A stretch of DNA of 64,000 bases, taken from NCBI GenBank assembly GCA_000708835.1, contig DF236953.1:45971-109970 (forward strand), given 5' to 3'. How positions within the stretch are numbered: position 1 is the stretch's first letter; each line of letters begins with the position of its first letter. This document shows, piece after piece, positions 36,012 to 63,385 of this stretch. Below the pieces are notes generated by a model. That model searched no databases and was not told the origin of the DNA. It saw nothing but the letters and a program-made list of their open reading frames with translations. The position numbers were made by a program, and so were the translations under genes. This stretch comes from Klebsormidium nitens. Lineage: Eukaryota; Plantae; Klebsormidiophyceae.

Positions 36012-36282
36012 GGGTGTACCAAGAAATGATGTATTACTTCTTAAGACTATAATGGGTATTTTCTGGTACATCTTGCGTGGTATGGCCGACTCATCCAGCG
36101 TTGAGGTGTATAAGAAAAAGACGTATTACTCTTTAGAGAAGAATTGGGCGTTTTCTGGTACATCCAGGGGGGGGGGGTATGGCCGGCCCTGCGAACGTTG
36201 AGGTGTACCAGAAAACGATGTATTACTTCTTAAGAAACTAATGGGCGTTTTCTGGTACATCTCCGGGGGTATGGCCGGCTCT
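36012..36282 (-). repeat. Left array: 3 copies of the ~75-bp quasi-palindromic repeat, in inverted orientation relative to the right array
   Basis: Units GTACCA(A)GAAA..TATTACTTCTTAAGA..TAATGGG..TTTTCTGGTACATC..GGTATGGCCG at ~36014, ~36105 and ~36201 are the reverse complement of the units at 57.6-62.2 kb. Confidence 0.9.
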
Positions 36283-36593
36283 TCAGCACGCCGTGAGCAC
36301 CATTCGGTCGTTATCAATCTGAATCGACCATTTTAGACTCCGGAGCCGCAAAGGATCTCTAAAGAGACTTTTTAGAGAAGCCTATGATATGCGTGCAAGC
36401 TTGCTTCGGCGTCAATGTCAACGTTAGAATCAGCTTCAGCTTCGGGATCTGGGGGATCGAAGATCATTATATAAAAGTCAACAGCAACAGTGTCAATGGA
36501 ACCCAACAGCAACAGTGTCAATGGAACCCCCCCCCTTGCTCATGAACTCTCAAAAGAGACAAGGCAAGTTCAACTTGGGTTGCCTTGCAACAC

Positions 36594-36938
36594 CTAGACC
36601 AGTCTCTCGAAGATGGTGGATGTGATGGCGAGTGCTACAATATCATAAAAAAGCTTTGCATCTCTACATACGCCTGGATCGTTGGTGTCAAGCCTGAACA
36701 GATGCGTGATTGCTTCCATCACGTAGTCAACAATGAACCTCCACTCGACGGTGCAGTTCAATGGCACCCCCAGAGTATCTTGACATTCGTAAGCTCCGTT
36801 CCTTAAATCCGTAGTACTAGTCGTTCCATTTGGAAGCGCCATGAGCAAGGTATCCTTCTCGATGCACGTTCCTCCCCTAACTACGTTAATGACAAGCGCT
36901 TGAGGTGGGTCGTACTCGCTTAAGGATACCTTACTCAT
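36594..36938 (-). CDS. Small hypothetical protein (~114 aa), divergent from the KDZ gene
   Basis: Open frame from ATG 36938 with protein-like composition; no recognised motif. Confidence 0.3.
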   Translation of the reverse strand: MSKVSLSEYDPPQALVINVVRGGTCIEKDTLLMALPNGTTSTTDLRNGAYECQDTLGVPLNCTVEWRFIVDYVMEAITHLFRLDTNDPGVCRDAKLFYDIVALAITSTIFERLV

Positions 36939-37022
36939 TAGAATGAGAGCAAGCGGTGGTAGCCACGAACTTAGGGAGATCAAGAGGTGCTTTAACCAAC
37001 AAGTCGTTTCTTTGTCGACAGG

Positions 37023-40000
37023 ATGGACCTTTCGACCCCCGATGCATCCGAAGCCCTCAAAGATTCCAGCCGCATCGTACTGCTTGCATCGACCACTCCA
37101 GCAGCATCAGCTACCTTGCACGGGACTCTAGCAGCCAATCAAGCAGTCCGGAGCTACGCAGCGGTCCACTTCAAAGGCCGGGTTCCCGCCTTCGGTGACA
37201 TCAGAAACGTCCCAGCGGCTGTCCCTCCTCCACCAAATGCAGGGGGCGTGCGTGGAGGGCGCCCTTCCTATGCCGCCAAGCAGGGGGGCGCCGACTTCTC
37301 GTTCGACTATGGACTCGCCTTCAGCTTGCGGCCTGCCGGGGCCTTTGATCGAGGCGGATTCGGCTCGACGTGCATCGGGCGCACGTGCGGCGGGAAGGGG
37401 GCGGTCTACACTCGGAGGAGCGAACCCTTCATCTGGGAGCGGAAACGAAACCGAGGCGGAGCAGTCATCTGTCGAGGTGGTGGAGGGCATCTCCTTTGCC
37501 TTCGATGCGTGGAGGCCCAGTACAAAGAGGGGAACCCCTTCGTTTCCAGCGCGAGCGAAGGGCCCGTTTCTCAGCAAGAGCTCTTCACCAAGTACGAAGT
37601 GTTTCCCAAGACGAAAGAGCTTCGAGAGGTACGGTCAGGGGAGGTAGGGAGCGAAGGCGGCCACCAATTCTTTGTGCAGAGGAGGGACCTCGCCCCCTGC
37701 CCGTACTGCTGCGAGCCCAAGGTGGCCGGTCCGTCAAGGCGCGGTGTCATGAGAGCGCTGGAAGAGGGGCCGAGCCCACGGGAGCTCGGCACGGTGGCGA
37801 TCCTATCGGAGTTGAGTCGGAGCAAAGTCCCTCCGATTGCGGTTGCCCCCGGCCTTTTCCTTTTGCCCCAGCTCGACGCCCCCAGCGGGCGCCTTCTGGA
37901 CATTTTTGCCACGGATCGGGGGCTCGTCAACGCTCCCCGACTCGTGAAGGTCGACCACATGGGCAGCTTCCGGTGCCTGTGCGGTCAGAAGGCGTGCCGT
38001 GACCACGACGTGGGATTCTTGGAGGCGACGCGTCTCATGGGCGGCTGGTGGCAAAACGGAGAGGCCATCTTCACGGCCTTTGACGACAGTCGTCCGTTCG
38101 TGCGGGAGGTCACGAGCGGTGTGTCTTGGGTGTTGCCGCTAGACCAAGGGGGGTGCGTGGGGGGTGCTCTCTTTGGGTTAGACGCGGAGGCGTGGAAAGG
38201 CGGGCCGCAGCTCCGAGTGTTTGTTGTGAGCAATCCTAAGGAGAAGCCCGTGGTTTGCGTGCTTGTAGGAGAGAATGCGCACTGTGGCGAAGTCGACTGC
38301 ACGGGTCCAAAACGGTGCCGGCACCTTTTGGGCGTGCTTTCGAATCAATCTCTGCCTCTGATTGAGCGCGCCGCAGATGGAGGTGGGAGTGAGGTGACGC
38401 GGACCCTCGCTGAGAGACGGGCGGAGAGGGTCGGGCAGCGAGAAGCGCGGGCAAGGCGGCTCTTGGTCTGCAACGACTCCGTGTGCCGACGACCCGACTC
38501 AAAGGCCGTCTGCACGCATGGAGGTACGCTCGAGGCTTGGGAGTGTCTCTCCGCTGCGGTGCTCGACATGGGACATAGCCACAAGAGGATAAGTACGGTC
38601 ATGAGCCGTGGGGGGAGAAGTGTCACGAGCTTGTGCGAGCGCTGGGGCGACCGGGGTGTACGAGAGAGGGACGAGGCAAAGCATTTCTGCGCCCCGCGAC
38701 CCGTCAATCCGCTCTCACCGTGTGGCCGCGCATGGCAACTGGAGAGTAGGAACGGGGCTCTGACAACCGCGGGAGCGCGCTACCCGGTCACTACCTATCG
38801 AAGGGTCTGTCGACTGGCACCGGGACGCGAGGCGGCGTGCTGCTCAGTAGCCTACGACGGCCAGGTGCGTCCAAACCCCTTTGTCGTACAGATTTCTCCA
38901 TCGCCGCTGCGCGCATTTTTTGTATTGTTGGTATGCCGCTTCCGAAGGTAGCAAAGCATTGTTACTGAGGTAGTCAAACTTGTACTTGGCTTTGACTACG
39001 GGCGAAAATTTTGCTTCGGTCGAGAATCCTTGTCGAGGCTCCAACGGTACCAGGCAGCGAAGGATGGACAATTGTTGGATTGCCTCCTCGTGAAAGATGC
39101 GCTCCAACTCTTGTTCACGGCTCTCGAGTTCCGCTCTGAGGTCAATGCTTTCGGTTGGATTGAGACCGGCCAGTACGGCTTGCGTCTGGAAGCATCTTCC
39201 GAGCTCTGCAAGGTCATGATAATGTTGGACAAGCCTCTCTCTTCGTTCCTTGATGACTTTTGCTCGTCGATCCTCCAGAGCACTGTTGAAGCCCGTTGGA
39301 CCTCCTCGCTCTCGAACAGCAAGTACTTGCAGGTCCGACTCTCGATAGAAGCGGGTCTTGACGAAACCCGAAGGATGAGGAGCCCACTGAAGTGAAGAAA
39401 GGTCCTTGATTTGGTACTTTCGTCGGGCCTCTGCTGTGGTCAAGCAGTCGAGCGCGCGGTGCATTCCAAAGTTCACACAGCTTAAGGAGAATGGCAAGCC
39501 CTTATGCGGTTGCATGGGCCATCGCAGTTCGGTCCAAGCATTGTCGCATACTGTGCAACACTCTCGAGGCCAAACGGTCTCAAAATGTAGCGGACCGGAT
39601 GCGACGCTGTATGGAACCGGGAGCTCGTGCATCATCGTTCCGATAGCCGCGTGTGCATCTTTGCAGGTACACGCTGAAGCTGCCAAGTCCGGAAGACCGA
39701 GCAAGCCATTGTCACCGACCACGTTCAAAGCAAACGCAAATTTGTTGTTCAGAGCCATAACAGAGCAATATAATTAATTTGATCTACTTTGGACGCGCAA
39801 CTGAGGTCAACTTCCTTTCTCATTGCAGGAAGACGGCATCTTCAACTTCTCCGGCACCAACCTCATCTCGCACGGACTCCTCTTGCGCAACCACTTTGCC
39901 GCAGCTCTGGGGGCAGCTCACAGCCTCAACTTTGAGGCGGGGGACATGGCCACAAGGTGCCTCGAGGGGCCCAGCGTCCCTAGGCTGGACGACCGGGTGT

Positions 40001-42074
40001 TTGACGCTGCCATGCAAGCCTTCAACGACCTCGCCGCGCGGCCTCGAATCCAGCACGTCTGCAACCGTCTTGATTGCGCACACCTCTATACCTCAGAGGT
40101 GCGGGCCGCCGAGGTAGAAGCGGAGGCGGCTGGCAAGCCTCTTGCGCCGGAGCGGACCGAGGGGTCTCCTGTTGAGCTGTCGACCTACGCCTTCTGCCGC
40201 GACAAAGTCATCACGTTCGATGGGACATTCTTCCCCAATTCGAGCGCCATGCGCGATAGCGCGGAGGCGACGCTCCACAGCGTCTGCGAGCCGGACCCAG
40301 AGGCCCCTATGGTTCGAGGAGGTTTCACTCCTCTGAGCGTAGGCGGAGTGCGGCCATCCGACGTCCCTCTGGAGGGCATTGACGGACCCTGGAAGTACAG
40401 GAACGGGCTGTCAGAGCTTAGGCCGGCCGTTCGAACTGCGGCCCTTCGGTGGTGCAACTTCCGGAAGGCGGCCGCCCAAGGGAGCAACCTGCCGCTCTCG
40501 GCCGACGAGTTCGTGGCGATGCGGGAAGGTTTGCCGCCTCACGTGAGAGCCCTCTTGGATTTTGCCACCGAGTCGGTAGCGTGCCCCAACCCCGCCGACT
40601 GCGCGACTTGCAGAGCGGTGCCTCGCCGCCCCTGGATGGACGGGGTGTTGAAGAACGGTCCCGTAGCGCCCACGGAATGGTGTCCGACCCACTTTCAATC
40701 GTACGCGGCACTCCTGCACGCTCTGCTCATCCCTCGGTACAGCTGGGTGTTTGGCCACATCGTGGCGCTGAAGCTGCTAAGGCACGTGTTGCTCGAAGGA
40801 GCGCTCGACGAGCGGGGGCTTGCGTACCTCACAAACGATGCCCCGATGCTGGCGGCAATCCTTCGAAGGCACCCGACGAACGAAGGGCCCAAGCAGTACT
40901 GCTTTCCCTCGGCGCTACGGCCTCTCATGCGCGACATCTACGCGGCCAATCTACTATGCTTTGAGCCGACTGCCAACCGCCCCGGGGCATCGCTTCGATC
41001 CCCTTTGGCGGCCCTCTATGACGCCACTGAGCATCTATGGGCCCTTGAGAGTGAGAAACTCCGATCATTGGGCAACTCTGGGGAGGCCGCCATTCTCTAT
41101 GCGGAACAGCGCGGCGCGGCGCTCAAAGGGGCTGCGAATTCTCGCTTGTTCGACCTGGAGGTGCGAGAACCCCAGTGCTACACACCAAACGGCTTCCTTA
41201 GAGAGCCCTCCGCTGTTTATAGGGACCGCGTCGGGGCCGTCTCGCTGTACGACTTCCATCCTTTGCTTTATGGGCGGCCGCAGTTCACAGACTGGGAGGA
41301 CACTTCGGGTCGAGGGAGAAAAGGCTCGGAAGAGCGGCTGGCGCAGCACTGCGGGGCTCCCACTCCTCGGTCGGCAAAGGGCCGTGCTGGAATGTTTATC
41401 GCGTGCTGCCAAGACCGAGCGCCGCTGGGCTATCACTGGCTTAAGGGAGGCGAGAGCGTATCCGACCTCGGCACCGTTCTGATCACACGCTTCCCGTTCA
41501 AGACGCTCCGTGGACTGACGATAGTCGAGGATGCCGCTTGCAATGCGCAAGAGTGGCTCTTGAATCGGTGAGTATTGATTTTGCTTAATTTGATTGAAAA
41601 TTCAATTCAAGGTGCCAGCACTGTGGCAAAGGCTCGATAAATCGTTTTCAAGGAACCATCGTTTTAGTGCAATCAAAGTTTATTTGTTCAAGGTTTAACC
41701 ATCATTTGCAAATTGCTTGCAGGGTGCCTCAGCTGGCAAAGTTCATGCTATTCGTTGTCGATCGGTTTCACTCGGGACCCGTGAGCTGCGCGCCGGCCGG
41801 AGCCGCTAAGCGCTACGCAACGCACACTTGTTCGCCGACGCTCTTCATCGATTCGTACCCTCAGCACGAGGCGACAGTGACAACCGCTAGCGAGGGCCTG
41901 AACTCGGGCCTGAAGCGCTCGGCGGCTAGTTTGCAGCAGATCACGAGCATCAGGCGGCTGATGAGTAGAGTCACGACCATCCTCGACACGCTGTTTGAGC
42001 GTTTAAAGTACGCGGACTATTGGAGTGAGACTAGCAGCCCGTTAAGGGACTCAATTCGGAGGGGCCGTGGTTGA
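37023..42074 (+). CDS. KDZ (Kyakuja-Dileera-Zisupton) superfamily transposase with SWIM-like and CxC cysteine clusters. Exons 37023-38864, 39829-41567, 41723-42074
   Basis: In-phase GT-AG splicing. SWIM-like FRCLCGQKACRDH and CGEVDCTGPKRCRHL; CxC-type YDGQ|EDGIFNFSGTNLISHGLL; VITFDG; KDZ core GMFIACC...GYHWLKGGESVSD...TRFP...EDAACNAQEWLLNR|VP...FVVDRFH...CSP...SEGLNSGL. Confidence 0.88.
38844..39758 (-). CDS. Intronless 304-aa protein with an XPA C-terminal-like DNA-binding domain, nested antisense in KDZ intron 1
   Basis: CxxC followed by LTTAEARRKYQIKDLSSL...PHP...TRFYRESDLQVLAVRERGGPTGFNSALEDRR, which matches the XPA_C pattern (itkteAk..Y.L.d.dl...nPh...mrLy...ve..a...hG..eg...e.R), followed by a helical tail. 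Confidence 0.65.
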   Translation of the reverse strand: MALNNKFAFALNVVGDNGLLGLPDLAASACTCKDAHAAIGTMMHELPVPYSVASGPLHFETVWPRECCTVCDNAWTELRWPMQPHKGLPFSLSCVNFGMHRALDCLTTAEARRKYQIKDLSSLQWAPHPSGFVKTRFYRESDLQVLAVRERGGPTGFNSALEDRRAKVIKERRERLVQHYHDLAELGRCFQTQAVLAGLNPTESIDLRAELESREQELERIFHEEAIQQLSILRCLVPLEPRQGFSTEAKFSPVVKAKYKFDYLSNNALLPSEAAYQQYKKCAQRRWRNLYDKGVWTHLAVVGY

Positions 42075-42083
42075 CATTCAGTT

Positions 42084-42111
42084 TCATTACTCATTACTCA
42101 TTACTCATTAC
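42084..42111. repeat. (TCATTAC)4 heptamer repeat between the convergent KDZ and primase-helicase 3' ends
   Basis: Four perfect tandem units directly after the KDZ stop codon. Confidence 0.9.
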
Positions 42112-42296
42112 CCACTTCCAGAAGGCCCGGATTGATTTTGTCTTTTTTGCATGTGGGAAAGGTCTCTAACTTCCAAAAGCATGGTAATCGCGTAATAGAG
42201 TAATAAGTTCTATTTTATGAACACGTTCATGGGTTCTATCATGTTGTGTGTATGTATAAACCTTGGGTAATATGAGGGTAATAAGCTTGTTGGTAC

Positions 42297-45089
42297 TTAT
42301 TGATCATCAGAAGGTCTATCGAGTGTGCTTGAAGGCACCACTACGCGCCCAAATTCGTCTCTTCTGACCACACACACATGATAGTTCGAGCAGTACGAAC
42401 ATGCAATCGACTGTTGCAGCTCTTTCAAATCACCTTGAGGGTTCTTGAACGCTATCCATGGGCCCTCTTGGTCTTCTTTGTAGTCGTGTCGCTGCCAAGT
42501 ATCCACCCATTCGACGGTCGAGCTCCAGAGTTTGCCGTCGTGGAGCGCCTTGCAGATAGCGTTTTGTGGTGGGAACCACCATCCCTTGTGCGTTCGCACT
42601 TGCTGGATGCTGCGTGCTTGCGGCCTCATGTTAAAGATGGCACTCAAAGATTTCATCAAGACGTTGACGTCAACATGGCGATCCTCCTTAATGTCTAGTT
42701 GTGCTAAGAAGATGTCGAATGTACGCTTGATATCCACGGATGCAACCCATGTTTCCAAATAAGGATGAAAGCACCCGTTTTCAAGCAACGCTTGAATCAT
42801 TTTCACATGCGAAGGGATAGAGTGGTCCTTCAGACCCTCTCCCCATGCCGTGATTGGTACCTTCTTGGGATCCCAATCAGAAATGTCAATGGATGACAGA
42901 TATTGATGGAAGAAAAAGGCCGTCTCTGGCTTTCGAAGCTCCTCAAGAAGCTCGTCAAAGTACTGTTTGTTTCCTACCTTGGCACCCGAGCATTCCTGAC
43001 AAGAATATCGCCGGTCATCGGCCTCTCGTTTGACAGGCCATGCATTGTTTGTTGTAAACACGATGTTGCTCCTGTCTTGTACGGAGATTGCATCGAGTCC
43101 TTTCCTTTCGAGGCACGTTGTCTCTTGAGTAATCAGAGACTTCATTCTGTCGTTCATCTTGTACGCTCCCCCCCAGTTGCCAGCTTCGTCAAGAACAATC
43201 AGCAGCTTGTTTGCCCCAAGGGAATTGAACTGACCAATGATCTTTTCAATCTCGTTACAATACAGATAATTCTTGCTGCCAATGATGTTGATCCCATAAA
43301 AGTCAAGCGGCACTGATTTCCCGCATCCCTGGGGCCCACGAAACACGAGAGCCACCTGAGTCTTTTGCCAGGGCCTCTGAACCCCATGGGCCATCCACCT
43401 GGTATTGTATTCAAACCGTTCAGCAGATCCATCGCACAAAATGTAGCGAATGTGCCACATAAGCCTTGGAAATTGCTTTTCGCACTCGGCGCGCTCAGAA
43501 GCTGACAACTTGCGCTGCAGCGGTGCAAAATTCAAACCACAGAATATGTTGAAGTGTCGGGGCGAGACCTTGGATAGCTCAGGCCCAAACACAATCTGGT
43601 CGAATTCGCGTCGCTTTGGACTGCTTTCCCAGAACTTGGCAACTTCCTTTCTCTTGCCGGGCAGGCAATGGAGTTGTAGATTCTTGCAGCGTTCAATAAA
43701 ATTGTGGCCCGACCTTTCGATAGTTTCCTCACGTTGGAGACAGCCATTTGTGTTTTGTGAGTAGATGGTCTCAATATAGATCGCCTTTGATGTGCCGACA
43801 ACGACGGCAAAATAATGACTCATCATGTTTACCACGAGGTTTTCTAGGTCCGTTTTTGCTTGTTTGGTACAATCGTCATTGCCTTTTGCCTTTGATACAG
43901 GGAGCAAATAACTTTCGCAAGCACTAATGAAGCTCCCTTCTGCCCTCAACGGTAAACTTTCCGGCCAAAAGTGGACGCCAAGCAGTCGCTTTGGTTGATC
44001 AATGCACTCCGCACTTAGACATTGATAGAGAAGAATCCCTCCATTGCTGAGGATGCTGAAGTTGTTTGAGATGTGTTGGTGGCCGTTCAAGCACGTTCGA
44101 GTGCCTATTGTCTTGAATTTGAGAATCCTCCATCCATTTGGAGTTTTTTCTCCGACACCGTTGAAGATGCTACAGTCATTTGGTACCTTTGCGTGTAGCA
44201 TCTTCCTTATGTCTTTGAGTGCTCGTTCCAAACCCGGCAAAACCAGCTTGTCATGCACGTCACTAGATGATGCTTTCGCTTTTGGCATTGCTTCCTCTTT
44301 CGCAAATGGCCTTGTAATGGCCCCACATCCATACGAATCGCTTTCATTTGGAGATTTAACCGTCTTCTCTTCCTCGTCTTCCTCTTTTCCGCTATGCTGT
44401 TTGCAATCATTTAGTATTCTGACTAGCCATGAAGGCATGTCTTGGACAGCATCAAAGGTTGGAGGCCCGTTGATCCACTCATATGTTGCGAGCTGGCCAC
44501 GACCATTGACGTAGCTCGCAGGGTGGGCAAAGACAACACCCTTTCCGCCTCTCCCATCAACCGCAAAAGTCTCATCGCCAACCGTTAAGGTTGAGAAGTT
44601 TCCAGTGCACGTAAGCCCTGGCGAATTTGCTTTGAAGAAAAAGTGTTTTCCGCCCGACCCTGTCTTTGCCTGAAGCGTTGTGGGCTCCCCATGCTCGGCA
44701 ATAAGACGACGCCACAACTCCATGCCCGACTTCTTTGTGGTATCAATAACTTCTTTGACGGTGTTGCTAGTAACGTCTATATCCACCGCATAGATCCCAC
44801 TTGCACCCGTGAGTATCGCAACGCCGTTGGCGTCTGGCCTCTGGCGTAGTGCGTCATTGATGGAGTTTTGCCACGTGTCGAGGTCTTTAATGTGCTCGTA
44901 TGTGCGAGGAAATCTAGGATATTTTCTCCCCTTGTTCTTATCCCAAGAGAGGTGCACGGGGATTGCGAGGAGGCCACCTTCACAAAGTCGTAAGATCTCG
45001 TCTTTAATGCTCTGGGGTCCTGGACCATTGACCCTCTGTGAAACTTGAGGCCCGAAGCCGCTGACCTGCTCATTGCCAGATACAGACAT
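42297..45089 (-). CDS. Intronless 930-aa bifunctional primase-polymerase (Prim-Pol) + Zn-binding + SF3 (D5/DUF5906-like) helicase
   Basis: Prim-Pol motifs NGVAILTG..IYAVDIDV, TLQAKTGSGGKHFFF, VDGRGGKGVVFAHPAS..YEW; CxxGHxHxxNN...YQCLSAEC; Walker A GPQGCGKS; Walker B LIVLDE; motif C VFTTNN; DDRRY. Confidence 0.92.
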   Translation of the reverse strand: MSVSGNEQVSGFGPQVSQRVNGPGPQSIKDEILRLCEGGLLAIPVHLSWDKNKGRKYPRFPRTYEHIKDLDTWQNSINDALRQRPDANGVAILTGASGIYAVDIDVTSNTVKEVIDTTKKSGMELWRRLIAEHGEPTTLQAKTGSGGKHFFFKANSPGLTCTGNFSTLTVGDETFAVDGRGGKGVVFAHPASYVNGRGQLATYEWINGPPTFDAVQDMPSWLVRILNDCKQHSGKEEDEEEKTVKSPNESDSYGCGAITRPFAKEEAMPKAKASSSDVHDKLVLPGLERALKDIRKMLHAKVPNDCSIFNGVGEKTPNGWRILKFKTIGTRTCLNGHQHISNNFSILSNGGILLYQCLSAECIDQPKRLLGVHFWPESLPLRAEGSFISACESYLLPVSKAKGNDDCTKQAKTDLENLVVNMMSHYFAVVVGTSKAIYIETIYSQNTNGCLQREETIERSGHNFIERCKNLQLHCLPGKRKEVAKFWESSPKRREFDQIVFGPELSKVSPRHFNIFCGLNFAPLQRKLSASERAECEKQFPRLMWHIRYILCDGSAERFEYNTRWMAHGVQRPWQKTQVALVFRGPQGCGKSVPLDFYGINIIGSKNYLYCNEIEKIIGQFNSLGANKLLIVLDEAGNWGGAYKMNDRMKSLITQETTCLERKGLDAISVQDRSNIVFTTNNAWPVKREADDRRYSCQECSGAKVGNKQYFDELLEELRKPETAFFFHQYLSSIDISDWDPKKVPITAWGEGLKDHSIPSHVKMIQALLENGCFHPYLETWVASVDIKRTFDIFLAQLDIKEDRHVDVNVLMKSLSAIFNMRPQARSIQQVRTHKGWWFPPQNAICKALHDGKLWSSTVEWVDTWQRHDYKEDQEGPWIAFKNPQGDLKELQQSIACSYCSNYHVCVVRRDEFGRVVVPSSTLDRPSDDQ

Positions 45090-45196
45090 GTCCTTGAGTC
45101 ACATAAGGAAAAAAAGCGTGTTGAACAAACGCACCACAATTGGGCTGCGGTCGAGGCATTGCGCAAAATAATCTCAACTAACAACAGGACTCGACA

Positions 45197-45547
45197 ATGG
45201 TCCATCAAATCGAGGAAGGATTTTCGGAAGTGTCCAACGAAATTCTAGGAAATTTTCCATGCCCATGTCGAGCGTGCCACAAACACAGACAATACGCCAG
45301 ATTGAATCCGGAGAAGCATAATGCAAACATGAGGGCGTACTACCACAGGCATCAGGAGACAATACTACTATGCAAGGCGTACAAAAGGTACCTGAGTGGT
45401 CAAACGAACAAACTTCATGAGACCACCGCCCGACGGTTGATTGCTGCCGGATTTGATGTTCCTCAAATGGTCTCTTTGGGCACGATACACAAGGGTAATG
45501 CACCTACGGTGCCTTTAGGCGTCTTTACTAGCATCGAAGTATCCTGA
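45197..45547 (+). CDS. Small basic virus-like hypothetical protein
   Basis: CPCRAC plus YARLNPEKHNANMRAYYHRHQE, a charged/aromatic helix of the type common in small viral DNA-binding ORFs; divergent from the primase-helicase. Confidence 0.5.
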   Translation: MVHQIEEGFSEVSNEILGNFPCPCRACHKHRQYARLNPEKHNANMRAYYHRHQETILLCKAYKRYLSGQTNKLHETTARRLIAAGFDVPQMVSLGTIHKGNAPTVPLGVFTSIEVS

Positions 45548-45588
45548 AGCATTTGGCAGATTACCAATGGAACGCAGAACGCAGATTG

Positions 45589-46644
45589 TCAAAATTGTAT
45601 CTTGGATCCGCAAGGGAGGTACTTTTTTTCATAATGTTTTTGTGCAACAGCGGCGGTGTGCAGCATGCTTCGCGCAAGATCGTCCCGTTCGGCAATGCTT
45701 GGAGCATCCTTGAAGAGATTGCTCACACAGATCTTCCGCAGCAAGCAACTACCGACCTTTGCGTCTTTGAAGAGGCCAGTTGAGCAAAACTTGGTGAGAT
45801 AATTCCTACTCATCGGCTTATCCGGCGATCTCATCCGAGACAAGAGGTACGTTCTAGGAAAGACTTGCAAGCTTTCAGCAATGACGTTGTTGCATCGGGT
45901 GCTCATATCTATTGAAGTAGGTCCATGGTGCTTAACGGTTTTAAAGTCCTTCAGTACGAGACGAAACTGGTCTTCTGCAAACTCCAGCATATAGTTTTCT
46001 GACCCCGACATTGTTTTACATGCCTCAGTGGTTTCGATGTCCTCAAAGCGGATGATCGGGCACTCTGAGTAGTCGTTGCGGATTGCAGGCTGATACGTGA
46101 AGAGACAAAGGTTCAAGTGACGGATCAGAATTATCTTGTCCTCAATAGACAAGTCCTCGGGTGACTTGACTAGAATCTTTCTATTTACATGCCGTTGTAG
46201 CTCGACTCTTCGTTCAGCTATTTCATCGAGTGTCTTCCAATTGGTGGCTTCTCTTTCTGTCAACACCTGTGGAGGCGGCCGCGCCTCATCCATCAACTTG
46301 CGAACCGCTGTGTATCGTGCGTAATAGACGTCGTACGACGATTTGTTATCAGGAAACGCTTTGCGCACAATGACTAGCAATGGGTTTAACCCGGTCGCTT
46401 GCATGGATAGCTTGGTGGGGTATGTGTCTTGAAAGTACTTAATAATCGCATCAGCATCCTTGATCCAATCCACGCTACCAAAGTCCCTTTCTCGATGCAA
46501 CCCTTGAAACAGACGCATCACATGCTTGCAATATTGCTGGATCGTGAGCTTCTTTCGGCCACCGTCATCAAACACTTGGCGTAGCAGCCGTTCACTAGTG
46601 GTCACCGTGGTTATGTGCCTTGTGCCTTTGGTGGGCTCCGACAT
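45589..46644 (-). CDS. Tyrosine recombinase/integrase, Polinton-like-virus/virophage type (351 aa, intronless)
   Basis: Catalytic set in order: R (QPAIRNDY), K (DFKTVKHHG), LLRKICVS (HxLRH variant), H (MLHT), Y (KHYEK); helical N-terminal domain. Confidence 0.85.
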   Translation of the reverse strand: MSEPTKGTRHITTVTTSERLLRQVFDDGGRKKLTIQQYCKHVMRLFQGLHRERDFGSVDWIKDADAIIKYFQDTYPTKLSMQATGLNPLLVIVRKAFPDNKSSYDVYYARYTAVRKLMDEARPPPQVLTEREATNWKTLDEIAERRVELQRHVNRKILVKSPEDLSIEDKIILIRHLNLCLFTYQPAIRNDYSECPIIRFEDIETTEACKTMSGSENYMLEFAEDQFRLVLKDFKTVKHHGPTSIDMSTRCNNVIAESLQVFPRTYLLSRMRSPDKPMSRNYLTKFCSTGLFKDAKVGSCLLRKICVSNLFKDAPSIAERDDLARSMLHTAAVAQKHYEKKYLPCGSKIQF

Positions 46645-46911
46645 CTTCCAGTTATCTGGATACCTCGGAGAAAAAAATGACCAAGGAAACGCTTCCCTTC
46701 TCAGATATTGTGAATTTCAGAGGTCGGAATTGCTTTCACCAATCAGGGACCGGTAAAAGCTTTTCATGGTTATATTGGTTATGAAAAGCTCCTGCAAGCC
46801 GACTTTACACCAGGTGTGTTTAGTCTATTTTCGGCCGAAAAGTTACTAGCGCTAGATACTGTGAATATGCTTGTACAAGAATTACTGAACGGGGTCTTTT
46901 AAGCAAGTCCG

Positions 46912-47460
46912 TTATCCGAGGGAGGCGTCTTCTTGGCATTCGTGGCTTACGCGAGCCTTATCTTTGTTTAAAAGCATGTCAAGACCTAAAATTGGCTCAT
47001 CATCATTCGTCCAAGCAACACTCGGGGCATAACGTGGAGACTCGTAGCAAGTCTCATGCTGTTTGCCAACCATCGGGATAGGGCTCTCGTCCCTATGCAA
47101 AAGCTTCCGTGCCTTGGACCGCAGATGGCGTGCCTGGCTTCTAGCACGTTGCGCATTGTTTAATGCAACTCTCCAATCCACTTTCACTCCGTAAGGGCCG
47201 TTAAAGCCGGACTTGTCCCAAAATGCATTAAACCCTTCGGCAACCAACGATCGCACTAGCGCTCTAGTTATGTGACGGAGGTTGAACGGCTCGGCTAGTG
47301 CTCGGATGCCGCCAAGAGCTGCAACATCGAGTATAGTTTCGAGCAACCCGAACTCTTTGTAAGATCTTAAAATTGCGGATCTCGCACTCTCGAGGACGGC
47401 TCGATCCATTTGCATGATGGCAATATGGGATTGGGGGCGATACCCAAGAATTGCATCCAT
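46912..47460 (-). CDS. Hypothetical protein (182 aa), intronless
   Basis: ATG-initiated ORF co-oriented with the recombinase; no motif recognised. Confidence 0.45.
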   Translation of the reverse strand: MDAILGYRPQSHIAIMQMDRAVLESARSAILRSYKEFGLLETILDVAALGGIRALAEPFNLRHITRALVRSLVAEGFNAFWDKSGFNGPYGVKVDWRVALNNAQRARSQARHLRSKARKLLHRDESPIPMVGKQHETCYESPRYAPSVAWTNDDEPILGLDMLLNKDKARVSHECQEDASLG

Positions 47461-53779: not shown

Positions 53780-54982
53780 TGGAGGCCTGCATGAGCGATG
53801 TAGGAGCAGGCAGATACCGCAGCGCAAGAGAGGCTGGCACACCTGCATAGCCTTCGATCGTGCTCGTGAACGAGTAAAAGGACACTACCTAATGCAAGTA
53901 CCTTCTGTGGAGATATGCCTACGTTGGTGGACGGGTTTAATGAGCTGTGGCGCACCAAAAAGCATCGCTGACCATGTCTCTCCCGCTTTACAGAAAAATA
54001 TTGAGGAAGCAGATTCTTAAGCACTGCAACACTCGACGGGGCGGCCGACCTCACACCAAAGCATGAGGATACGGATTCGCAAAGAGAGACCGACAAGCCT
54101 GGGTCGTCCGTTCACGTCTCGCTGACTCGGTGTACATTAAGTGTACCCAGTGCACCCAATGTACACTTTGCACCGTCCGAGCGATCCTGTCAACAGGACA
54201 TAGCGGCCCCAAGTTCCGACCATCACCCGCACAATGAGCACAGCAGGCTGCCCGAGAAAAGTGGCGGTGGGCTGCAACCCCCACTGAACTTTGTAAAGAT
54301 CATCACGATCTTCGAAAGGGACAGCCACTTACACAGAGGTCGGTGGCGCTTCCCGCCTCCTCTGCATCTCTCTTCGCATGGGCTCCAGCGCATCGTCCAC
54401 GGTTTGCTCCTCGAGCCGAGCTGTCGCTTCCTCCATCTCCCGCTGCCTGTACAGATCCAGTGATTCAGCGTCCGGCAGTGACGAGTCGTCGATGCCCCGG
54501 TCATCCTCAGATGTGGGCTCTTCGTTGGATTCGGTCTCGTCTGATGTCTCTTCAATGTCGAAGGAGGCAGCCTCTCGACCGGACGTCGCTGCTACCTCTT
54601 GCAAAACCATAAGAAACTGATCAATAGAATCTCGCCGTGCTTGCCGCTCATTGGCCGTCAGAAGAAGCTGGCAGTGGGGATCTTCTTGCAAAGAACGGTT
54701 AGCCCGGCAATGAAGACAGAGCCTATGCCTCTTTGCGCAGCCCCGTGCCCCTCTTGATACCTTTCAGCAATCGCACACAGAACAGGACACAGATTGCTTA
54801 CTGCTTCGTCCGGGCTTCCGATCCGGATCCTGGTACCGCTTGGCGCTGGGGAGCTCTCTCTGCTTGAGGCGGCCCTCTTCCTGCCTGCGACCTCCTGCAT
54901 TTGAGCATTGGGACACGTTGCATTCAGAGCAGGCATCACACAGACTTAGGGGAACGCCTCAGCGCTCAAAGGCATCACAACC

Positions 54983-55471
54983 ATGTGCTTTGACACCAAG
55001 TTCACGGGCCGCTTTGCTCTTTCTCGCCCCCTGACCATCAAAGAGAGCGCAATTTTGAAGGCCGTACACGACTACCGCCCTCAGAATAACCTGGAACTAC
55101 CCTCTGCGGCTTCCGAGCAAGAGCGCCCGGTCACAATCGAGCGGGTGGGATCCAAGCACAAATACGGCGGAGAGAAATTTCACTTTTTTGGTATATTCCC
55201 CTCCTTCGATTGCCAATGGACCGTCTCCAAGGACAAGCGCGCTCTTGTTTGGGACGAGAGAGGTGACTTCAGGGACTATGTGAGCTGGTTAGAGTACCTC
55301 ATCTCCCATTTCTTTGCGGCATGGGGAGTACAGCTGAACGGGACCGTCACATTGGAGGGGAATCTCTTAGGCGACACGGGATCGATTACGATCGATGGCG
55401 ACCTGATTGTCGTCGATCTGAAGGAACCAATCAAGGTACTTTGCATAGAGAGATTGTTCGACGCACCGTAG
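54983..55471 (+). CDS. Phage/bacterial-like hypothetical protein, copy 1 (162 aa)
   Basis: Intronless; pattern F.G.F.L.RPLT...CQW...LVWD...F.DYVSWLEYLI.HF...G..LNG.V...G...D.G.I, recognised from memory as an uncharacterised phage-type family. Confidence 0.7.
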   Translation: MCFDTKFTGRFALSRPLTIKESAILKAVHDYRPQNNLELPSAASEQERPVTIERVGSKHKYGGEKFHFFGIFPSFDCQWTVSKDKRALVWDERGDFRDYVSWLEYLISHFFAAWGVQLNGTVTLEGNLLGDTGSITIDGDLIVVDLKEPIKVLCIERLFDAP

Positions 55472-55665
55472 GTGGTGGCTCTACAGCGGCGGAGAGAGGC
55501 TTGCTGGCAGGATGCGGAGGGCTCGAGGAGGGGCCCGAGTTCTGCAAGACAGCAAGAGGGTGAGGAGTTTAGGGACAAGGGGCGCAGAGACGAGACAACC
55601 TCGACCAAAGGAAGTGTATTCCACATACTTAGGGCAAAGCTTTGGCGCTCAAAGGGCATCTGATT

Positions 55666-56131
55666 ATGGGCTACGACACCAAGTTCACCGGCCGCTTTAC
55701 CCTATCGCGCCCTTTGACTGCCGACGAGAGCGCGATCTTGGCAGCAGTGCACGACCACCGCCACCAGGCGGATCTCGAGCTACCTTATGCAGTTCTCGAG
55801 GAGCGCCCGGTCAAGATTGAGCGGGAGATATTCAAGCCCTGCTACATTGGCGAGTGGTTCAACGATTACAAGAAGTACCCCTCCTACCATTGCCAGTGGA
55901 CGGTATCACCCAACAAGCGCGCTCTCGTCTGGGACAAAATCGAGAAGTTTTACAACTACGTGAGCTGGCTCGAATACCTCAATCTCTCACTTTTTCGCCG
56001 TATGGGGAGTGCAGCTGAGCGGGACCGTCAATTGGAAGGGCGCTAACCGGGGCGACAAGGGTTCGATCACTGTCGAAGGCAATAGGATCCTCGTCAAGAT
56101 GCCTCTGGCTGCACGAATGGGCTCACCGTAG
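55666..56131 (+). pseudogene. Tandem copy 2 of the phage-like gene, with a +1 frameshift near 55980
   Basis: MGYDTKFTGRFTLSRPLT...CQWTVS...EKFYNYVSWLEYL. An extra A (TACCTCAATCTCT vs TACCTCATCTCC in copy 1) shifts the frame; the shifted frame continues ISHFFAVWGVQLSGTV...GDKGSITVEG to TAG at 56131. Confidence 0.75.
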
Positions 56132-56340
56132 GTGCCGGCTCTGCAGCAGCGGAGCGAGGTTGGCTGGCAGGATGCGTGTCGCTGGAGGAGGGGCCCGTCT
56201 CCTGCACGACAGGGAGAAGGCAGGGGGCTTAGGGGCAGATGATACGTAGAGACGGCAACTTCAAACACTGGAATGGTACTTCCAATTGGGGTGCAATCAG
56301 GACCGCGGAGCAAATCAAGAGTGTCTTTGCTCTCGGCGCC

Positions 56341-57112: not shown

Positions 57113-57524
57113 ACCTCCGCAGTCGTAATCGGAATCGGGGGCTGTCCGGACGAGCTGCTCGGGGCGTCGGGATCCTGTGTTGGCCCCGGGTTGCTTTCCA
57201 CGCCCCCGATTTTCAGTTGTGTCGCTGCAACGCACCGAAGGGATCCCTCAATCAATCGTCCTCAGAATGGCAAGCCCTTCAAGCTAGACTCGTGCATTCA
57301 CTGTGGTATCCACAAAGCCGACGGAAGCCTATTCTTGCCAACAAATGCCAGAGATCTGCCATCGTACCTATCAGCGCCCTGCTCTTTGGTGCTGAGGAGT
57401 AAAAGATCTTCTCCGACCCGCACTCGTAGGTCGGAGATCCTGCACGAGCAGAATGTTGGGGGGTAAGCCTGAAGGGCCGGGCGAGTTGAGAGTCCTGCCA
57501 CAATTCCAGCGGTCCTGCAGACAT
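57113..57524 (-). CDS. Putative spliced ORF start carrying a 2A-like motif (IGGVESNPG/P)
   Basis: ATG 57524; a phase-1 GT-AG intron at 57367-57225 joins ...SRALI-A-TQLKIGGVESNPGP-TQDPDAP...; donor GAG|GTGAG near 57113. Downstream exons are unresolved. Confidence 0.4.
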
Positions 57525-58078
57525 TCGAAATCTTACAAAGTAAACACTTGGCGCTTGCGGTGCGGCAAAGGCTCGCACCATATTCGGGGGCCCGGCCATA
57601 CCCTGCAGGATGTACCAAAAAACGCCCGTTAGATTCTTAAGAAAGTAATACAGCGTTTTCTGGTACACTCGGAATGTGCGCTGGATGGTCGGATCATGCG
57701 CTTGAAGGGCAAGGCCGGCCATACCCTGCAGGATGTACCAGAAAAGGCCCATTAGATTTTTAAGAAAGTAATACAGCGTTTCCTGGTACATTGGATTGTG
57801 CGCAGGATGGCTGGAATCACGCTTGATGGGCCAGCCCGGCCATGCCCTGCAGGATGTACCAGAAAAGGCCCATTAGATTCTTAAGAAGTAATACTTCGTT
57901 TCCTGGTACACGCTGATTGTGCGCTGGATGGTCGGATCATGCGCTTGAAGGGCGAGGCCGGCCATACGCTGCAGGATGTACCAGAAAACGCCCTTTAGAT
58001 TCTTTAAGAAGTAATACAGCATTTCTTGGTACACGGTCCGGCACCCCGCAAAGCCTCACACCGTTACAGGATGTTTGA

Positions 58079-58464
58079 NNNNNNNNNNNNNNNNNNNNNN
58101 NNNNNNNNNNNNNNNNNNNNNNNNNNNNNNNNNNNNNNNNNNNNNNNNNNNNNNNNNNNNNNNNNNNNNNNNNNNNNNNNNNNNNNNNNNNNNNNNNNNN
58201 NNNNNNNNNNNNNNNNNNNNNNNNNNNNNNNNNNNNNNNNNNNNNNNNNNNNNNNNNNNNNNNNNNNNNNNNNNNNNNNNNNNNNNNNNNNNNNNNNNNN
58301 NNNNNNNNNNNNNNNNNNNNNNNNNNNNNNNNNNNNNNNNNNNNNNNNNNNNNNNNNNNNNNNNNNNNNNNNNNNNNNNNNNNNNNNNNNNNNNNNNNNN
58401 NNNNNNNNNNNNNNNNNNNNNNNNNNNNNNNNNNNNNNNNNNNNNNNNNNNNNNNNNNNNNNNN
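58079..58464. other. Assembly gap (N) inside the repeat array
   Basis: N run. Confidence 1.
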
Positions 58465-60513
58465 GAAAGTAATACAGCCTTTCTTGGTACACGCTGATTG
58501 TGCGCTGGATGGCCGGATCATGCGCTTCATGGGCAAGGCCGCCATACCCTGCAGGATGTACCAAGAAAAGCCCCTTAGATTCTTGAAGAAGTAATACAGC
58601 CTTTCTTGGTACACACCCCCGCACTCTGCAAAGCTCCGCACCGTTTTTGAGGGGCCTCGGCCATACCTGCCAAGATGTACCAGAATCTGAGCGGACTTTT
58701 GATGTTCGAGAGGAAGTCGCCGAAAACTATCACGAGAGGACACGCATGGGATCGTTGGAAGGAGAAGGAGTCGTCGCTCACCTTGGAATGCGCTCCTCAC
58801 CAGCACGCTCTTTGTGGCGGTGGGCTGAACCCCAAACCTGTCGCTCCTGCTTGACAGCGCGCACAGTCCCTCTGCGCGGTGGACGGGAGGCTGCCTGGGT
58901 TGCGCCTCGTCACTGGCGGCGTGCTGATGGCGGGCTGCGCCAAGACCGCAGTCCGACTCAGAGTCGCCACTGGTCGCACTGGGGCTGGTTTTGGAGGGGC
59001 TGTCGGGTGCGTCGCGACCAGCAGACGCGGGCTCTGAAAAAGGTTGCGCTCAATGGGTCAGAAAAACGTCGCGCTGGGGTTTCAATGTCACAATTAATTG
59101 CCAAATAACCTGCAGAAGTCCTCGGATTCGTGCGACAGGTCAAGGGCATGCACTCTCAACCGGCCATACCCAGCAAGGTGTACCAAGAAACACCCATTTA
59201 GATTCTAAAGAATAGGGTTTTTTCTTGGTACACGTTCCTGATGAGAAGCAGAACTGACGCACCACAGAACGCTTTCCTTTGTATACAGCTTTTGGGGCGC
59301 CGCTTGGAACCCCTCCCTATATTGCACGACTCGGAACAGTTACCTTCGATTCTGGAGCTAATGACTGTGCCCAGCTGGCTCGGGACACTGCCGGCAGCCT
59401 GGCCATACACTTAAGGATGTACTAGGAAAGGGCAATTAGATTCTTAATTAAGAAACACGCCACTTCCCGATACATGCTGACGGCGCGCTGATCCAGCCAC
59501 ACCCCAAGGATGCACCAGGAAAGAGCCTCAGTTAAATCTTCAGAGAGGAATACGCCATCTCGTGGTACATACTGACAGCGCACCCCAATTCATGCCAGCG
59601 AGTAACAAAGGTTGGGTCGGGCCATGCTTTGCGCCGTCAGTGAATCAAGGCCTGAGCAACACAGTGCAGCGCAAGGGACTGCTGGACGCTCACCTTGCGA
59701 TCTGCTGAGCGCCGTACGACGGCTGCTCGTGGCAGGAAGCCGCCCCGGCTGGATTCCGTATGACGGCGCGCAAAGGCCCTCCCGTGCGGGGCGTTGCAAG
59801 CACTGCGCCTCGTCACCGATCGAGCTGGCGGCGGCGCGCTCGCACTCTAAGGGGTCGAGATTGGGGCGAGTCGCGGCAGCGGCGGAAGGCTCGTCGCAAT
59901 GGCGCGCGTTGTGGACGCCGGCGCCTGGTGATCCTGCGCGGTGGATAAGCACGGCGGCTCGTGAGTTTCACAATTCGCCCCAAAGATCAAGAGCATGCAA
60001 GCTGTCCGGCCATGCCCGGCAAAGACGCCACTTTGTGGTACATGCTCATGGTGCTGCGGGCCCGGCCATACCCCCCAGAATGTACCCGGGCGCTGCCTAT
60101 TCTTCTCTGAAGAAAGATTGAGATGATTCTTGGTACACTTTCGTGAAAGCTGCAGGCCCAGCCATACCCCCCCCAGGATGTACCAGGATTTGCCCATTAG
60201 ATTCTTAAAGAAGTAACACAGCGTTTCTTGGTACGCCTCAGAACGTGCGCTACGGTGGGCTGCAGGTCCGGCCATACCCTGCAGGATGTACCAGAAAAGG
60301 CCCATTAGATTCCTAAGAAAGTAAAACAGCGTTTCTTGGTACACTCGGAATGTGCACGGGACGGGGCGGACTGTGTGCTTCAAGCGCGCTTGATGGGCCA
60401 CCCAACCATACCGTGCAGGATGTACCAGAAAAGCCCATTCGATTCTAAGAAAGTAATACAGCGTTTCTATACCCGGCTTCACACTCTGCAAAGCCTCACA
60501 CTGTTTGGGTGGG

Positions 60514-61262
60514 NNNNNNNNNNNNNNNNNNNNNNNNNNNNNNNNNNNNNNNNNNNNNNNNNNNNNNNNNNNNNNNNNNNNNNNNNNNNNNNNNNNNNNN
60601 NNNNNNNNNNNNNNNNNNNNNNNNNNNNNNNNNNNNNNNNNNNNNNNNNNNNNNNNNNNNNNNNNNNNNNNNNNNNNNNNNNNNNNNNNNNNNNNNNNNN
60701 NNNNNNNNNNNNNNNNNNNNNNNNNNNNNNNNNNNNNNNNNNNNNNNNNNNNNNNNNNNNNNNNNNNNNNNNNNNNNNNNNNNNNNNNNNNNNNNNNNNN
60801 NNNNNNNNNNNNNNNNNNNNNNNNNNNNNNNNNNNNNNNNNNNNNNNNNNNNNNNNNNNNNNNNNNNNNNNNNNNNNNNNNNNNNNNNNNNNNNNNNNNN
60901 NNNNNNNNNNNNNNNNNNNNNNNNNNNNNNNNNNNNNNNNNNNNNNNNNNNNNNNNNNNNNNNNNNNNNNNNNNNNNNNNNNNNNNNNNNNNNNNNNNNN
61001 NNNNNNNNNNNNNNNNNNNNNNNNNNNNNNNNNNNNNNNNNNNNNNNNNNNNNNNNNNNNNNNNNNNNNNNNNNNNNNNNNNNNNNNNNNNNNNNNNNNN
61101 NNNNNNNNNNNNNNNNNNNNNNNNNNNNNNNNNNNNNNNNNNNNNNNNNNNNNNNNNNNNNNNNNNNNNNNNNNNNNNNNNNNNNNNNNNNNNNNNNNNN
61201 NNNNNNNNNNNNNNNNNNNNNNNNNNNNNNNNNNNNNNNNNNNNNNNNNNNNNNNNNNNNNN
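60514..61262. other. Assembly gap (N) inside the repeat array
   Basis: N run. Confidence 1.
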
Positions 61263-62834
61263 GAAAGTAATACAGCGTTTCTTGGTACACGCTGATTGTG
61301 CGCTGGATGGCCGGATCATGCGCTTCATGGGCAAGGCCGGCCATACGCTGCAGGATGTACCAGAAAAAGCCCAATAGATTCTTAAGAAGTAATATACCGT
61401 TTCTTGGTACACGCCCCCGCACGCTGCAAAGCCTCACACCGTTTTGGGGGGTGCCCGGCCATACCCCGCAAGATGTACCAGAAAAGGCCCATTAGATTCT
61501 TAAGAAGTAATGCAGCGTTTCTTGGTACACGCTGATTGCGCGCTTCGTGGGCTGCTCGGCTTTACTCCACCACTTGAAGATGTACCAGAAAACGCCCTTC
61601 AGGATCTTTGCGGGCTTTTCATTTCCGAGAGGAAAGAAGTGTCACTTCCCGGCACTCTGCCAAGGTCCGTCAATCGAGAAGAGGACACTGCGGCCACCAG
61701 ACATCATGGAGTCGTTGGAAGCAGGGGTCGTCGCTCACCTTGAGATGCGCTCCTCACCAGCACGTTCTTTGTGGCAGTGGGCTGAACCCCAAACCTGGCG
61801 CTCCCGCTTGACAGCGCGCACAGTCCCTGTGCGCGGAGGACGGGAGGCTGCCCGCGCTGCGCCTCGTCGCTGGCGGCTTGCTGATGGCAGGCTGCGCCAA
61901 GACCACTGTCCGACTCGGGGCCGCCGGCGGTCGCACTGGGGCCGATTGTGCGGGGGCTGTCGTGTGCGTCGCGGTCAGCGCGCGCGGACTCTGAAAAAGA
62001 GGCCCTCGATGGGTCAGAACTGCTGCACTCGGGATGTCACACTCGACCGCCAGATCCCCTCGGATAGTCCTCGGATTCGTGTGACTGGGCATGCACTTTG
62101 CCCGGCCATACCCAGCAAGATCTGTGTACCAGGGAACGCCCATTAGAGGTCTTAAGAAGTAATAGGTTGTTTCTTGGTACACGTTCTCGATGAGAAGCAG
62201 GGTTGACGCACCACAAAACGCTTTTCCTTGGTACACTGCTTTTGGGGCGCCGTTTGAAACCCCTCCGGTTTTTGCGCGACTTGGAACGATCACCTTCGTT
62301 TGCGAGCTAATGAGTGCGGTAGCTGGCTTGGCACAGTGCCGAATTCTATTCCCCTTTGACATTCTGGGCGCTCACCTGCTGTTGCTGTCCCTGACCAAGG
62401 TGCAGCTGGGTGATCCGGACCCCTTCTGATGCTGCTCGCGTTCAGGACAGGCAGGGTTCGCCTTCCTTCCCGTCTTCTCGCGCCCCTGAACCCATGCTGC
62501 AATGAAGAAAGGGCACGATAAGTGCAAGGTCGCAGGGGCTGTGCACAGCCATGCAAAGACCTGCGCTTGTGACTGAGGTCGAGTCGCTGGTTGCTGCACA
62601 CAAGCAAGAGGTGTGTGTCTCCTCTTACCTGCACGGTCCTTGTCGATCTGGAAACAACCCTTTGTTGGGCGGTGGCGCTCGCAATAGTATCGGACATTCC
62701 CTCCGTACTTGCCCCCGCGAAGCCCAACCCTGCGGGCGTGTCGCACTCGCGGCAATGAAGGGCATATGGGTCTGGAAAAGAGATGAAGGCAAAAAGCATC
62801 AGGGCCAATCACACACGACACACCTGCCTCGCAA

Positions 62835-63385
62835 GACCGGCCATGCCATCAAGTTTTGACGTTGTACCAAGAAATGGCTTATTGATATCTAAAGAAAGAA
62901 TTGGCCAGAACTTGGTACACTTCCCAGCCATGCCAACAGTTTTTGGCGCTGTACCAAGAAGTGACCCAGAATAATCTCAAGAAAGAACGGGTCAGAAACT
63001 TGGTTCCCTTCCCTGCGCACGCCCAGGCATGCCATCAACTCTTGGTGCCATTTTGTTATGTTCAAGAATAAGTGGTCATGACTTGGTACCTTCCCTGAAC
63101 ATGCCTAGCCATGCCATCAACTTTTGACACTGTACCGGGAAATGGCCTATCATTATCTTCAGAAAGACCTGGAGAAAAAAACGTGGTACTGCTCCCTACG
63201 CATGCCCAGTCCTGCCTTAAACTTCTGGCGCCATTATTATGTGGTCAAACCTGGGACAATTCAACGCAGACCCAGCCATGCCAACAACTTCTGGCGCTGT
63301 ACCAAGAATTGGCCCATTATCTTTAGAAATCTTTAGAAAGAATTGGCAAAAATCTGGTACACCTCCCAACGCACGCCCAGCCAGG
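62835..63385 (+). repeat. Diverged subfamily of the same repeat (~6 units)
   Basis: GCCATGCCA(T/A)CAA...TGTACCAAGAA...CTTGGTAC units retain the inverted GTACCAAG arms. Confidence 0.8.

Follow-up and report, generated by a model that had tools for sequence, protein, structure and literature searches.

A candidate giant composite KDZ transposon with two virus-type modules in the alga Klebsormidium nitens

Why do a KDZ transposase gene, two primase-helicase genes and a tyrosine recombinase gene lie side by side in the nuclear DNA of a streptophyte alga? The question is raised by contig DF236953.1 of the Klebsormidium nitens assembly GCA_000708835.1 (Klebsormidiophyceae), from which a stretch of 64,000 nt, called the window here, was analysed with the focus on the block 36012..63385. 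We read this block as one copy of a giant composite KDZ transposon family, at least 28 kb long, that has captured two virus-type modules, and we hold this reading with confidence just above even. A first-pass annotation had proposed a capsid-less KDZ element with cargo. Of this proposal, the modules were found to recur together and the enzyme genes to be intact, whereas the size of 27 kb and the subterminal nature of the repeats proved too narrow. Three assembly gaps lie in or beside the block (35019-35250, 58079-58464 and 60514-61262). The window was compared with the contigs of four runs, among them X1, X4 and X14; X14 is a single run that was taken to be RNA by guess only, and contig depth served only as a rough guide to copy number. 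Every part of the block is multi-copy, and 1081 contigs of run X1 match 35251-55250 at 80% identity or more.

The KDZ transposase gene is found on the plus strand at 37023..42074 (exons 37023-38864, 39829-41567 and 41723-42074). Its gene model contains two GT-AG introns and no internal stop and codes for 1310 amino acids. The gene is 79-88% identical to the paralog P0061 in tblastn and about 80% conserved across copies. When residues 560-1306 of P0061 were submitted to the Atlas feature comparison, the best match (0.95) had 196 of 256 features in common, and all of the ten best family-bearing matches fell into the family or clan of this match, a CxC5/KDZ cluster. The intact spliced gene and the Atlas clusters bear out the KDZ transposase that had been claimed here. 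The KDZ profile found no match among the PDB sequences. The protein contains candidate acidic motifs, which we take to be catalytic, and SWIM-like CxC...CxH patterns at residues 318 and 421, which are presumed from the pattern only. CxC4 was weakly matched in Pfam (E 0.00025-0.006, below the curated cut-off) in 5 of 12 KDZ paralogs and then in two of three in a second set. CxC4, SWIM and KDZ together make up the layout of Zisupton (PMC11343200). No RNA contigs are listed for 36300-46299 and the X14 contigs do not cover 39253-47256, which was not taken as silence.

The first virus-type module directly follows on the minus strand. An intronless gene at 42297..45089 codes for a D5/NrS-1-like primase-helicase of 930 residues with a Prim-Pol and a superfamily 3 (SF3) helicase part, which matched Pfam Prim-Pol (E 1e-15) and DUF5906 (E 7e-19) and the PDB entries 6k9c/6k9e, named 'Primase' (E 6e-14). 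At 45589..46644 lies an intronless gene for a tyrosine recombinase (YR) of 351 residues, which is of the giant-virus/virophage type. The YR had no match in Pfam and its profile found no PDB sequence. Its predicted model, with a predicted local distance difference test (pLDDT) score of 68, found nine viral structures at E <=0.001; the best include proteins of giant viruses and of a virophage as well as one named as a tyrosine recombinase, of Heterosigma akashiwo virus. Against the PDB, Cre came first (E 0.003), and the VIA comparison gave modest support, with best Z scores of 8.9 for Ndc10, 8.2 for Xer and 8.1 for an integrase at root-mean-square deviations of 13-15. The candidate residues are R189, K235, R303, H329 and Y338, whose roles we presume. 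In run X1, a single contig spans 40335-46857 with zero differences and therefore the adjacency of KDZ, D5 and YR is not a misjoin. No repeats were found to flank the D5-YR cassette and there was no inverted pair. The zero-difference contig ends at 46857, the point from which near-identical copies occur, and a perfect palindrome of 14 bp (46828-46841) lies shortly before it. Polinton-like viruses typically have a primase-helicase together with a YR (PMC10120064), a pair that has been proposed to be a mobile end module (PMC11296320).

The second virus-type module is a spliced gene at 47820..54900 on the minus strand that joins a PrimPol-type AEP primase to a UL9-like superfamily 2 (SF2) helicase. 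Its core (53779-47820) reads through at least 1287 amino acids without a stop over six GT-AG introns, and further 5' exons extend to about 54900. The AEP profile matched the PDB 'DNA-directed primase/polymerase protein' (PrimPol; E 2e-7), and the helicase part matched Pfam Herpes_ori_bp. All six introns were seen as joints in X14 and in none of the three other runs. Since an X14 contig crosses the intron 51536-51846 with one difference, transcription and splicing are seen, in this one probable RNA run, for the copy in the window or for one almost identical to it.

The relatives of the AEP-UL9 protein were collected with 759 residues of its paralog P0076, which gave 1664 matches among 1.84 billion representatives. 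Of the new proteins among the best 150 of these matches, 74 had at least 900 residues, and AEP and helicase occurred together in 45 of the 74. The five Klebsormidium sequences formed one group with a support of 99 in FastTree, which gave a long-branch warning. The seven matches from outside Klebsormidium that were looked up are all unnamed or 'hypothetical'; we infer that these relatives are intronless and viral. K. nitens also has a more distant lineage at about 34-35% identity, P0096 (KFL_005490050), where the gene model includes a ubiquitin-like domain. Proteins that fuse an AEP to a UL9-like helicase have been described in mriyaviruses, in mimivirus (R8) and in African swine fever virus (pF1055L) (PMC11253617).

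Do these modules travel together? Where homologs of the KDZ, YR and AEP-UL9 proteins carry a name, they are gene models of Klebsormidium nitens. The homolog searches returned 29 matches for YR, at least 22 for KDZ exon 2 and 10 for the AEP exon, and 30 clusters were looked up; the D5 gene was outside these searches. Co-occurrence was scored by the identical nucleotide size of the longest contig, so that the contigs are known by size. Eight of 86 distinct sizes were common to at least two of the KDZ, YR and AEP homologs, whereas a jittered null gave a mean of 0.02 and a maximum of 2 in 20,000. The contig of 77436 nt has KDZ, YR and AEP, those of 38059, 38027, 25479 and 9907 nt have KDZ and YR, those of 25666 and 25623 nt have YR and AEP, and that of 36472 nt has KDZ and AEP. 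KDZ homologs were present on contigs of at least 37 distinct sizes. Where the contig was 9 kb or longer, a partner was found for 7 of 11 YR homologs with an identity of 70% or more, compared to none of 15 below 70%, and for 6 of 27 KDZ and 4 of 13 AEP contigs. These searches favour close partners, and the distant YR clades may have distant, undetected ones. By this measure, at least two of the three modules occur together on eight other contigs.

Further evidence came from the YR tree, gene models and a paralogous contig. In the tree of 34 rows, from which rows below 200 residues and the fused model P0029 were left out, all six partnered rows, the window included, belong to one clade of 13 with a support of 100/100. 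The gene model KFL_008920020 fuses a YR amino terminus to a D5 carboxy terminus and has the number adjacent to the KDZ model KFL_008920030, which is the order of the window. A contig of 6196 nt in run X4 (depth 8.23) is collinear with the window: its record positions 5551-6068 match the helicase exon and its positions 234-547 match 63596-63916, at about 81-84% identity; that it is the same contig in the two comparisons was inferred from equal size and depth. Paralogs at 62-85% identity retain the motifs. No DNA loci of relatives were found for YR in the metagenome and viral contigs, for D5, AEP, P0097 and KDZ in the viral contigs, or for KDZ in the genome contigs. The record L002 matched the helicase at 21%, read by coordinates of open reading frames (ORFs) only, and phage records matched P0097 at 22-26% among the best 20 of 140.

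A family of palindromic repeats surrounds the genes. The unit is an imperfect palindrome of 56-57 bp with inverted arms of 12 bp, where 10-11 of the 12 arm bases pair, and a centre of 71-83% AT (five units examined). In two of the three units folded, the fold was better than those of all 200 shuffles. The repeat model was built from nine units of the right arm, which therefore match by construction. Three units are present in the left array (36013..36280, minus strand) and about 20 in the right arrays (57588..63363, plus strand), which include two of the assembly gaps and become degenerate towards 63.4 kb. Two more units with the left polarity lie at 52699..52877 (minus strand), within the AEP-UL9 intron 52374-52909, and two weak, degenerate units (E 0.017 and 0.11) at 35661..35964, to the left of the main array. 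The arrays had been described as bracketing the block in opposite orientation. The opposite polarity stood, but two units are inside the block, and the term 'subterminal' is too narrow because the repeat also occurs inside the AEP-UL9 gene and in a weak form at 35661. No unit was found in 1-34 kb, where the best match had an E of 0.48 compared to 0.43 for the best in five shuffles. The bin 35251-35917 had a summed depth of 60.8; in run X1, contigs with zero differences had a depth of 15.7-17.9.

Two sequence relations were observed in passing. Over 83 nt, the unit at 52700-52782 is 95% complementary to that at 62099-62181. No other unit pair among those listed is as close, and this one could mark an invertible segment or a recent conversion. 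Within the right arm, 58745-59393 and 61705-62341 form a direct duplication with 80% identity. The repeat pattern had no match in the viral contigs, and its sole match in the metagenome contigs (L001) was rejected as chance, since this low-GC contig of bacterial type has no similarity to the window. In the oriS of herpes simplex virus 1, the spacer between the directional boxes is rich in A+T, and work with UL9 made use of a fragment of 56 bp (PMC13483431). By analogy, the repeat unit resembles the herpesvirus oriS in size and layout, a likeness that is architectural only.

The right end that had been placed at 63385 is too small a limit for the element. The right arm is multi-copy up to 64000, with the continuation 63400..64000 supported by depth and by loose ends in four of four runs, and 63596-63916 is linked to the helicase exon on the X4 contig. 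This fits the suggestion, also made in the first-pass annotation, that the right end may lie past the window. The paralogs depart together at 63945, but this break was not accepted as a terminus, since their loose letters agree between the copies in four of four runs. Very high depth was observed at 63854-63945, where the paralog match stops just past a minus-strand ATG; another multi-copy gene may have its first exon here. A direct match of 23 bp between 34808 and 63372 (E 0.05) was rejected as an att core, since it belongs to the tail of a degenerate unit. With no terminus found, a right arm that stays multi-copy as far as 64000 and a break at 63945 that is not terminal, the element is at least 28 kb long, unbounded, and likely extends past the window.

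Several findings weigh against a single composite element. The Pfam KDZ model PF18758 matched neither the KDZ protein nor the paralogs searched, and the predicted KDZ fold was not used at its pLDDT of 32. The repeat is not confined to intergenic DNA but also occurs in introns. Elements of the Zisupton-type KDZ group make target site duplications (TSDs) of 7-8 bp and have terminal inverted repeats (TIRs), which are absent in Kyakuja and KDZx1. Here, neither a terminus nor a TSD was found within the window, the alignment of the flanks (34.0-36.6 kb with 57-64 kb) returned only the repeat unit and no TIR, and there were no empty-site contigs among the matches listed. No gene for a DNA polymerase was found in the block. 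On other contigs, the order, strand and distance of the genes were seen for one pair of gene models only. In an incomplete search, 21 of 27 KDZ, 9 of 13 AEP and 4 of 11 close-YR contigs were without a partner, and stand-alone KDZ copies may be the rule. The left arm in run X1 is covered by long zero-difference contigs with a depth of 15.7-17.9; from 47.2 kb rightwards, the near-exact contigs (0-4 differences) are short and often have a depth of 23-43, with one at 15.8. This suggests a recent, near-identical duplication of the right arm, from about 46.9 kb rightwards, without the left arm. The 25623-nt contig is a mosaic with 70% identity in YR and 50% in AEP, a sign of module shuffling.

Since no partner was found for most KDZ contigs and the extra near-identical copies are only of the right arm, the modules may also move independently of one another. 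The block could consist of two or three units that are mobile on their own, namely a KDZ transposon, AEP-UL9 with the palindromes, and D5-YR, and that nested in or targeted one another and were partly co-amplified. The right-arm copies, the KDZ contigs for which no partner was found and the mosaic contig speak for this, as do the distant AEP-UL9 lineage at 34% and the sharp changes in composition between the segments of the block. The GC content at third codon positions (GC3) is 71% in KDZ, 76% in AEP-UL9 and 73% in one host ORF, and 53% in D5 and 56% in YR. We consider this explanation possible but rather unlikely: the same repeat family lies to the left of KDZ and to the right of AEP-UL9 with opposite polarity, KDZ pairs with AEP (36472 and 77436 nt) and with YR (five contigs) at similar divergence, and neither an internal terminus nor a repeat pair was found to mark the cassette.

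An endogenous polinton-like or mriyavirus-like replicon that integrates via its YR, and whose capsid gene was lost or is located past the window, is an unlikely explanation of the block; KDZ would then be a passenger that entered an ancestor before the spread. The primase-helicase with YR is the standard pair of polinton-like elements of 15-30 kb, and clusters with a major capsid protein have been reported from streptophytes (PMC10120064, PMC11296320). The viral AEP-UL9 fusions, with mimivirus R8 and F1055L among them (PMC11253617), the 45 of 74 long matches with both domains, the three other YR clades, in which no KDZ partner was found, and a right end beyond the window also fit such a replicon. 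On the other side, no match to a capsid, packaging ATPase or PolB was obtained with 82 ORFs in Pfam or 20 in PHROGs, although such capsids can escape profiles (PMC11296320); this agrees with the first-pass annotation, which had seen none. There is little unassigned space within 35-64 kb. The AEP-UL9 gene has at least six introns and a host-like GC3, unlike a recent virus, KDZ is intact and about 80% conserved across its copies, and no inverted repeats flank D5-YR. A chance pile-up of insertions unique to this locus, which had been offered as the alternative, or an assembly artefact is very improbable and largely refuted because the modules recur together elsewhere: the three gaps and the lack of a single contig across the block would allow it, but the zero-difference KDZ-D5-YR contig, the eight shared contig sizes against 0.02 expected, the collinear X4 contig and the adjacent gene models contradict it.

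How might a composite KDZ element have arisen and how would it work? From what is known of its family, the Zisupton-like KDZ transposase would cut and insert the element. The AEP-UL9 gene is probably an old capture because of its introns and its host-like GC3, and the intronless SF3-YR cassette of lower GC may be a later one, which resembles the end module of polinton-like viruses and would have been present before the family spread. The UL9-like protein may recognise and melt the oriS-like palindromes and then lay down primers that the host polymerases extend. Extra copies would then arise either at the site itself or once the element has been excised, and their resolution may fall to the YR. 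That the element replicates itself in this way is a tentative possibility. That the family forms a new class, a self-replicating transposon without capsid and polymerase that combines KDZ insertion, UL9-like firing and YR resolution, is rather doubtful.

The closest known systems each cover a part of the block. KDZ elements are large and carry extra ORFs (PMC11343200). The KDZ transposons KDZx1 and KDZ1-3 of Cryptococcus (PMC11343200) and those carrying TET (PMC12730594) resemble the block in the spliced transposase of about 1300 residues, the candidate SWIM-like and CxC4 motifs, the multiple copies and the extra ORFs; those described are 6-11 kb long with unknown or TET/JBP cargo, whereas the present element has at least 28 kb, two primase-helicases and a YR. 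Teratorn (PMC10175614) likewise joins a DDE transposase to virus-derived replication genes and is multi-copy, but it consists of piggyBac and a whole alloherpesvirus of 180 kb with polymerase and capsid. Here, the transposase is KDZ-like, one viral gene has introns, and no match to a herpesvirus polymerase, terminase or capsid was found in the block. The polinton-like viruses and virophages (PMC10120064, PMC11296320) share the adjacent intronless SF3 primase-helicase and YR, the GC offset and the size, but in the window no match to a capsid or packaging ATPase and no inverted repeat at the module were found, and KDZ and a second, spliced primase-helicase are linked to it.

The AEP-SF2 and UL9-oriS systems (PMC11253617, PMC13483431) have in common with the block an AEP and a UL9-like part in one protein, no polymerase found of their own and a 56-57 bp unit with inverted boxes around an AT-rich spacer; the element described here differs in being nuclear, intron-rich and multi-copy and in a unit sequence unlike oriS. 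An AEP-SF2 helicase is present in the window, but the HUH endonuclease and capsid of mriyaviruses were not found there. PolB with an rve integrase, as in Polinton/Maverick, and the Cas1 of casposons were not found in 35-64 kb. Starships have a DUF3435 'captain' recombinase as their first gene. The YR here is internal, has no Pfam match and has a fold closest to giant-virus and virophage proteins. No description of KDZ combined with a viral primase-helicase and a YR was found in the literature covered, which excluded most subscription journals and Repbase.

Smaller genes complete the block. In the first intron of KDZ, and almost wholly within it, lies an antisense ORF of 309 codons (38844..39773, minus strand) that had been called XPA-like. 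No XPA match was obtained in Pfam, PDB, NCBIfam or Atlas; its best Atlas match is an unnamed cluster (0.92) and the region is multi-copy. A small intronless ORF (45197..45547, plus strand) and an ORF of 182 residues (46912..47460, minus strand) had no match in Pfam and NCBIfam. To the right of AEP-UL9, a tandem pair of phage-like small genes (54983..56046, plus strand), 58% identical to each other, matched phrog_38666 of PHROGs with E 7e-17 and 4e-12; in the second, the reading frame is lost close to the end. Together with this pair, the Prim-Pol/SF3, tyrosine recombinase and AEP-UL9 genes named by the first-pass annotation were confirmed by matches in Pfam, PHROGs, PDB and the viral structures. 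The 2A-like peptide was also recovered at 57181..57207 (minus strand), just after an acceptor-like site, but has a G at the position of the canonical D in the 2A motif.

The left part of the window has a different content. Two regions, 8300-11900 and 29900-33200, hold host-type genes: a gene that we presume to be of the ARC6-like plastid-division type and a sushi-repeat gene (Pfam Sushi, E 0.0005). A plus-strand ATG with an exon-like stretch at 34192-34333 points towards the element and may belong to a host gene that the insertion interrupted. A nested long inverted duplication (18325-21540 and 26212-29852) of at least six segments with 70-92% identity surrounds a core at 21.5-26.2 kb and is a separate foldback-like element. 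An identical stretch of 24 bases is found at 34995-35018 and 35251-35274, on both sides of the gap 35019-35250, followed by a GC-rich stretch, and is probably an unmerged contig overlap.

According to a review, no fusion between a DNA virus and a cut-and-paste transposon was known before Teratorn (PMC10175614), and the coupling of primase and integrase has been argued to be a possible source of new giant elements (PMC6431247). If the composite reading is true, the block would be a further, independent route to such a fusion, in a streptophyte alga and from a KDZ transposase and replication genes of small viruses. Since it has a copy that is intact, an initiator-like protein whose gene is transcribed and spliced, and candidate origins, it would allow a direct test of whether a eukaryotic transposon replicates itself with host polymerases, and the element would be categorically new if it does. 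Klebsormidium holds genes that resemble those of nucleocytoplasmic large DNA viruses (PMC5294986, PMC11244446), and some of its scattered 'viral' genes would then be transposon cargo and not relics of giant viruses.

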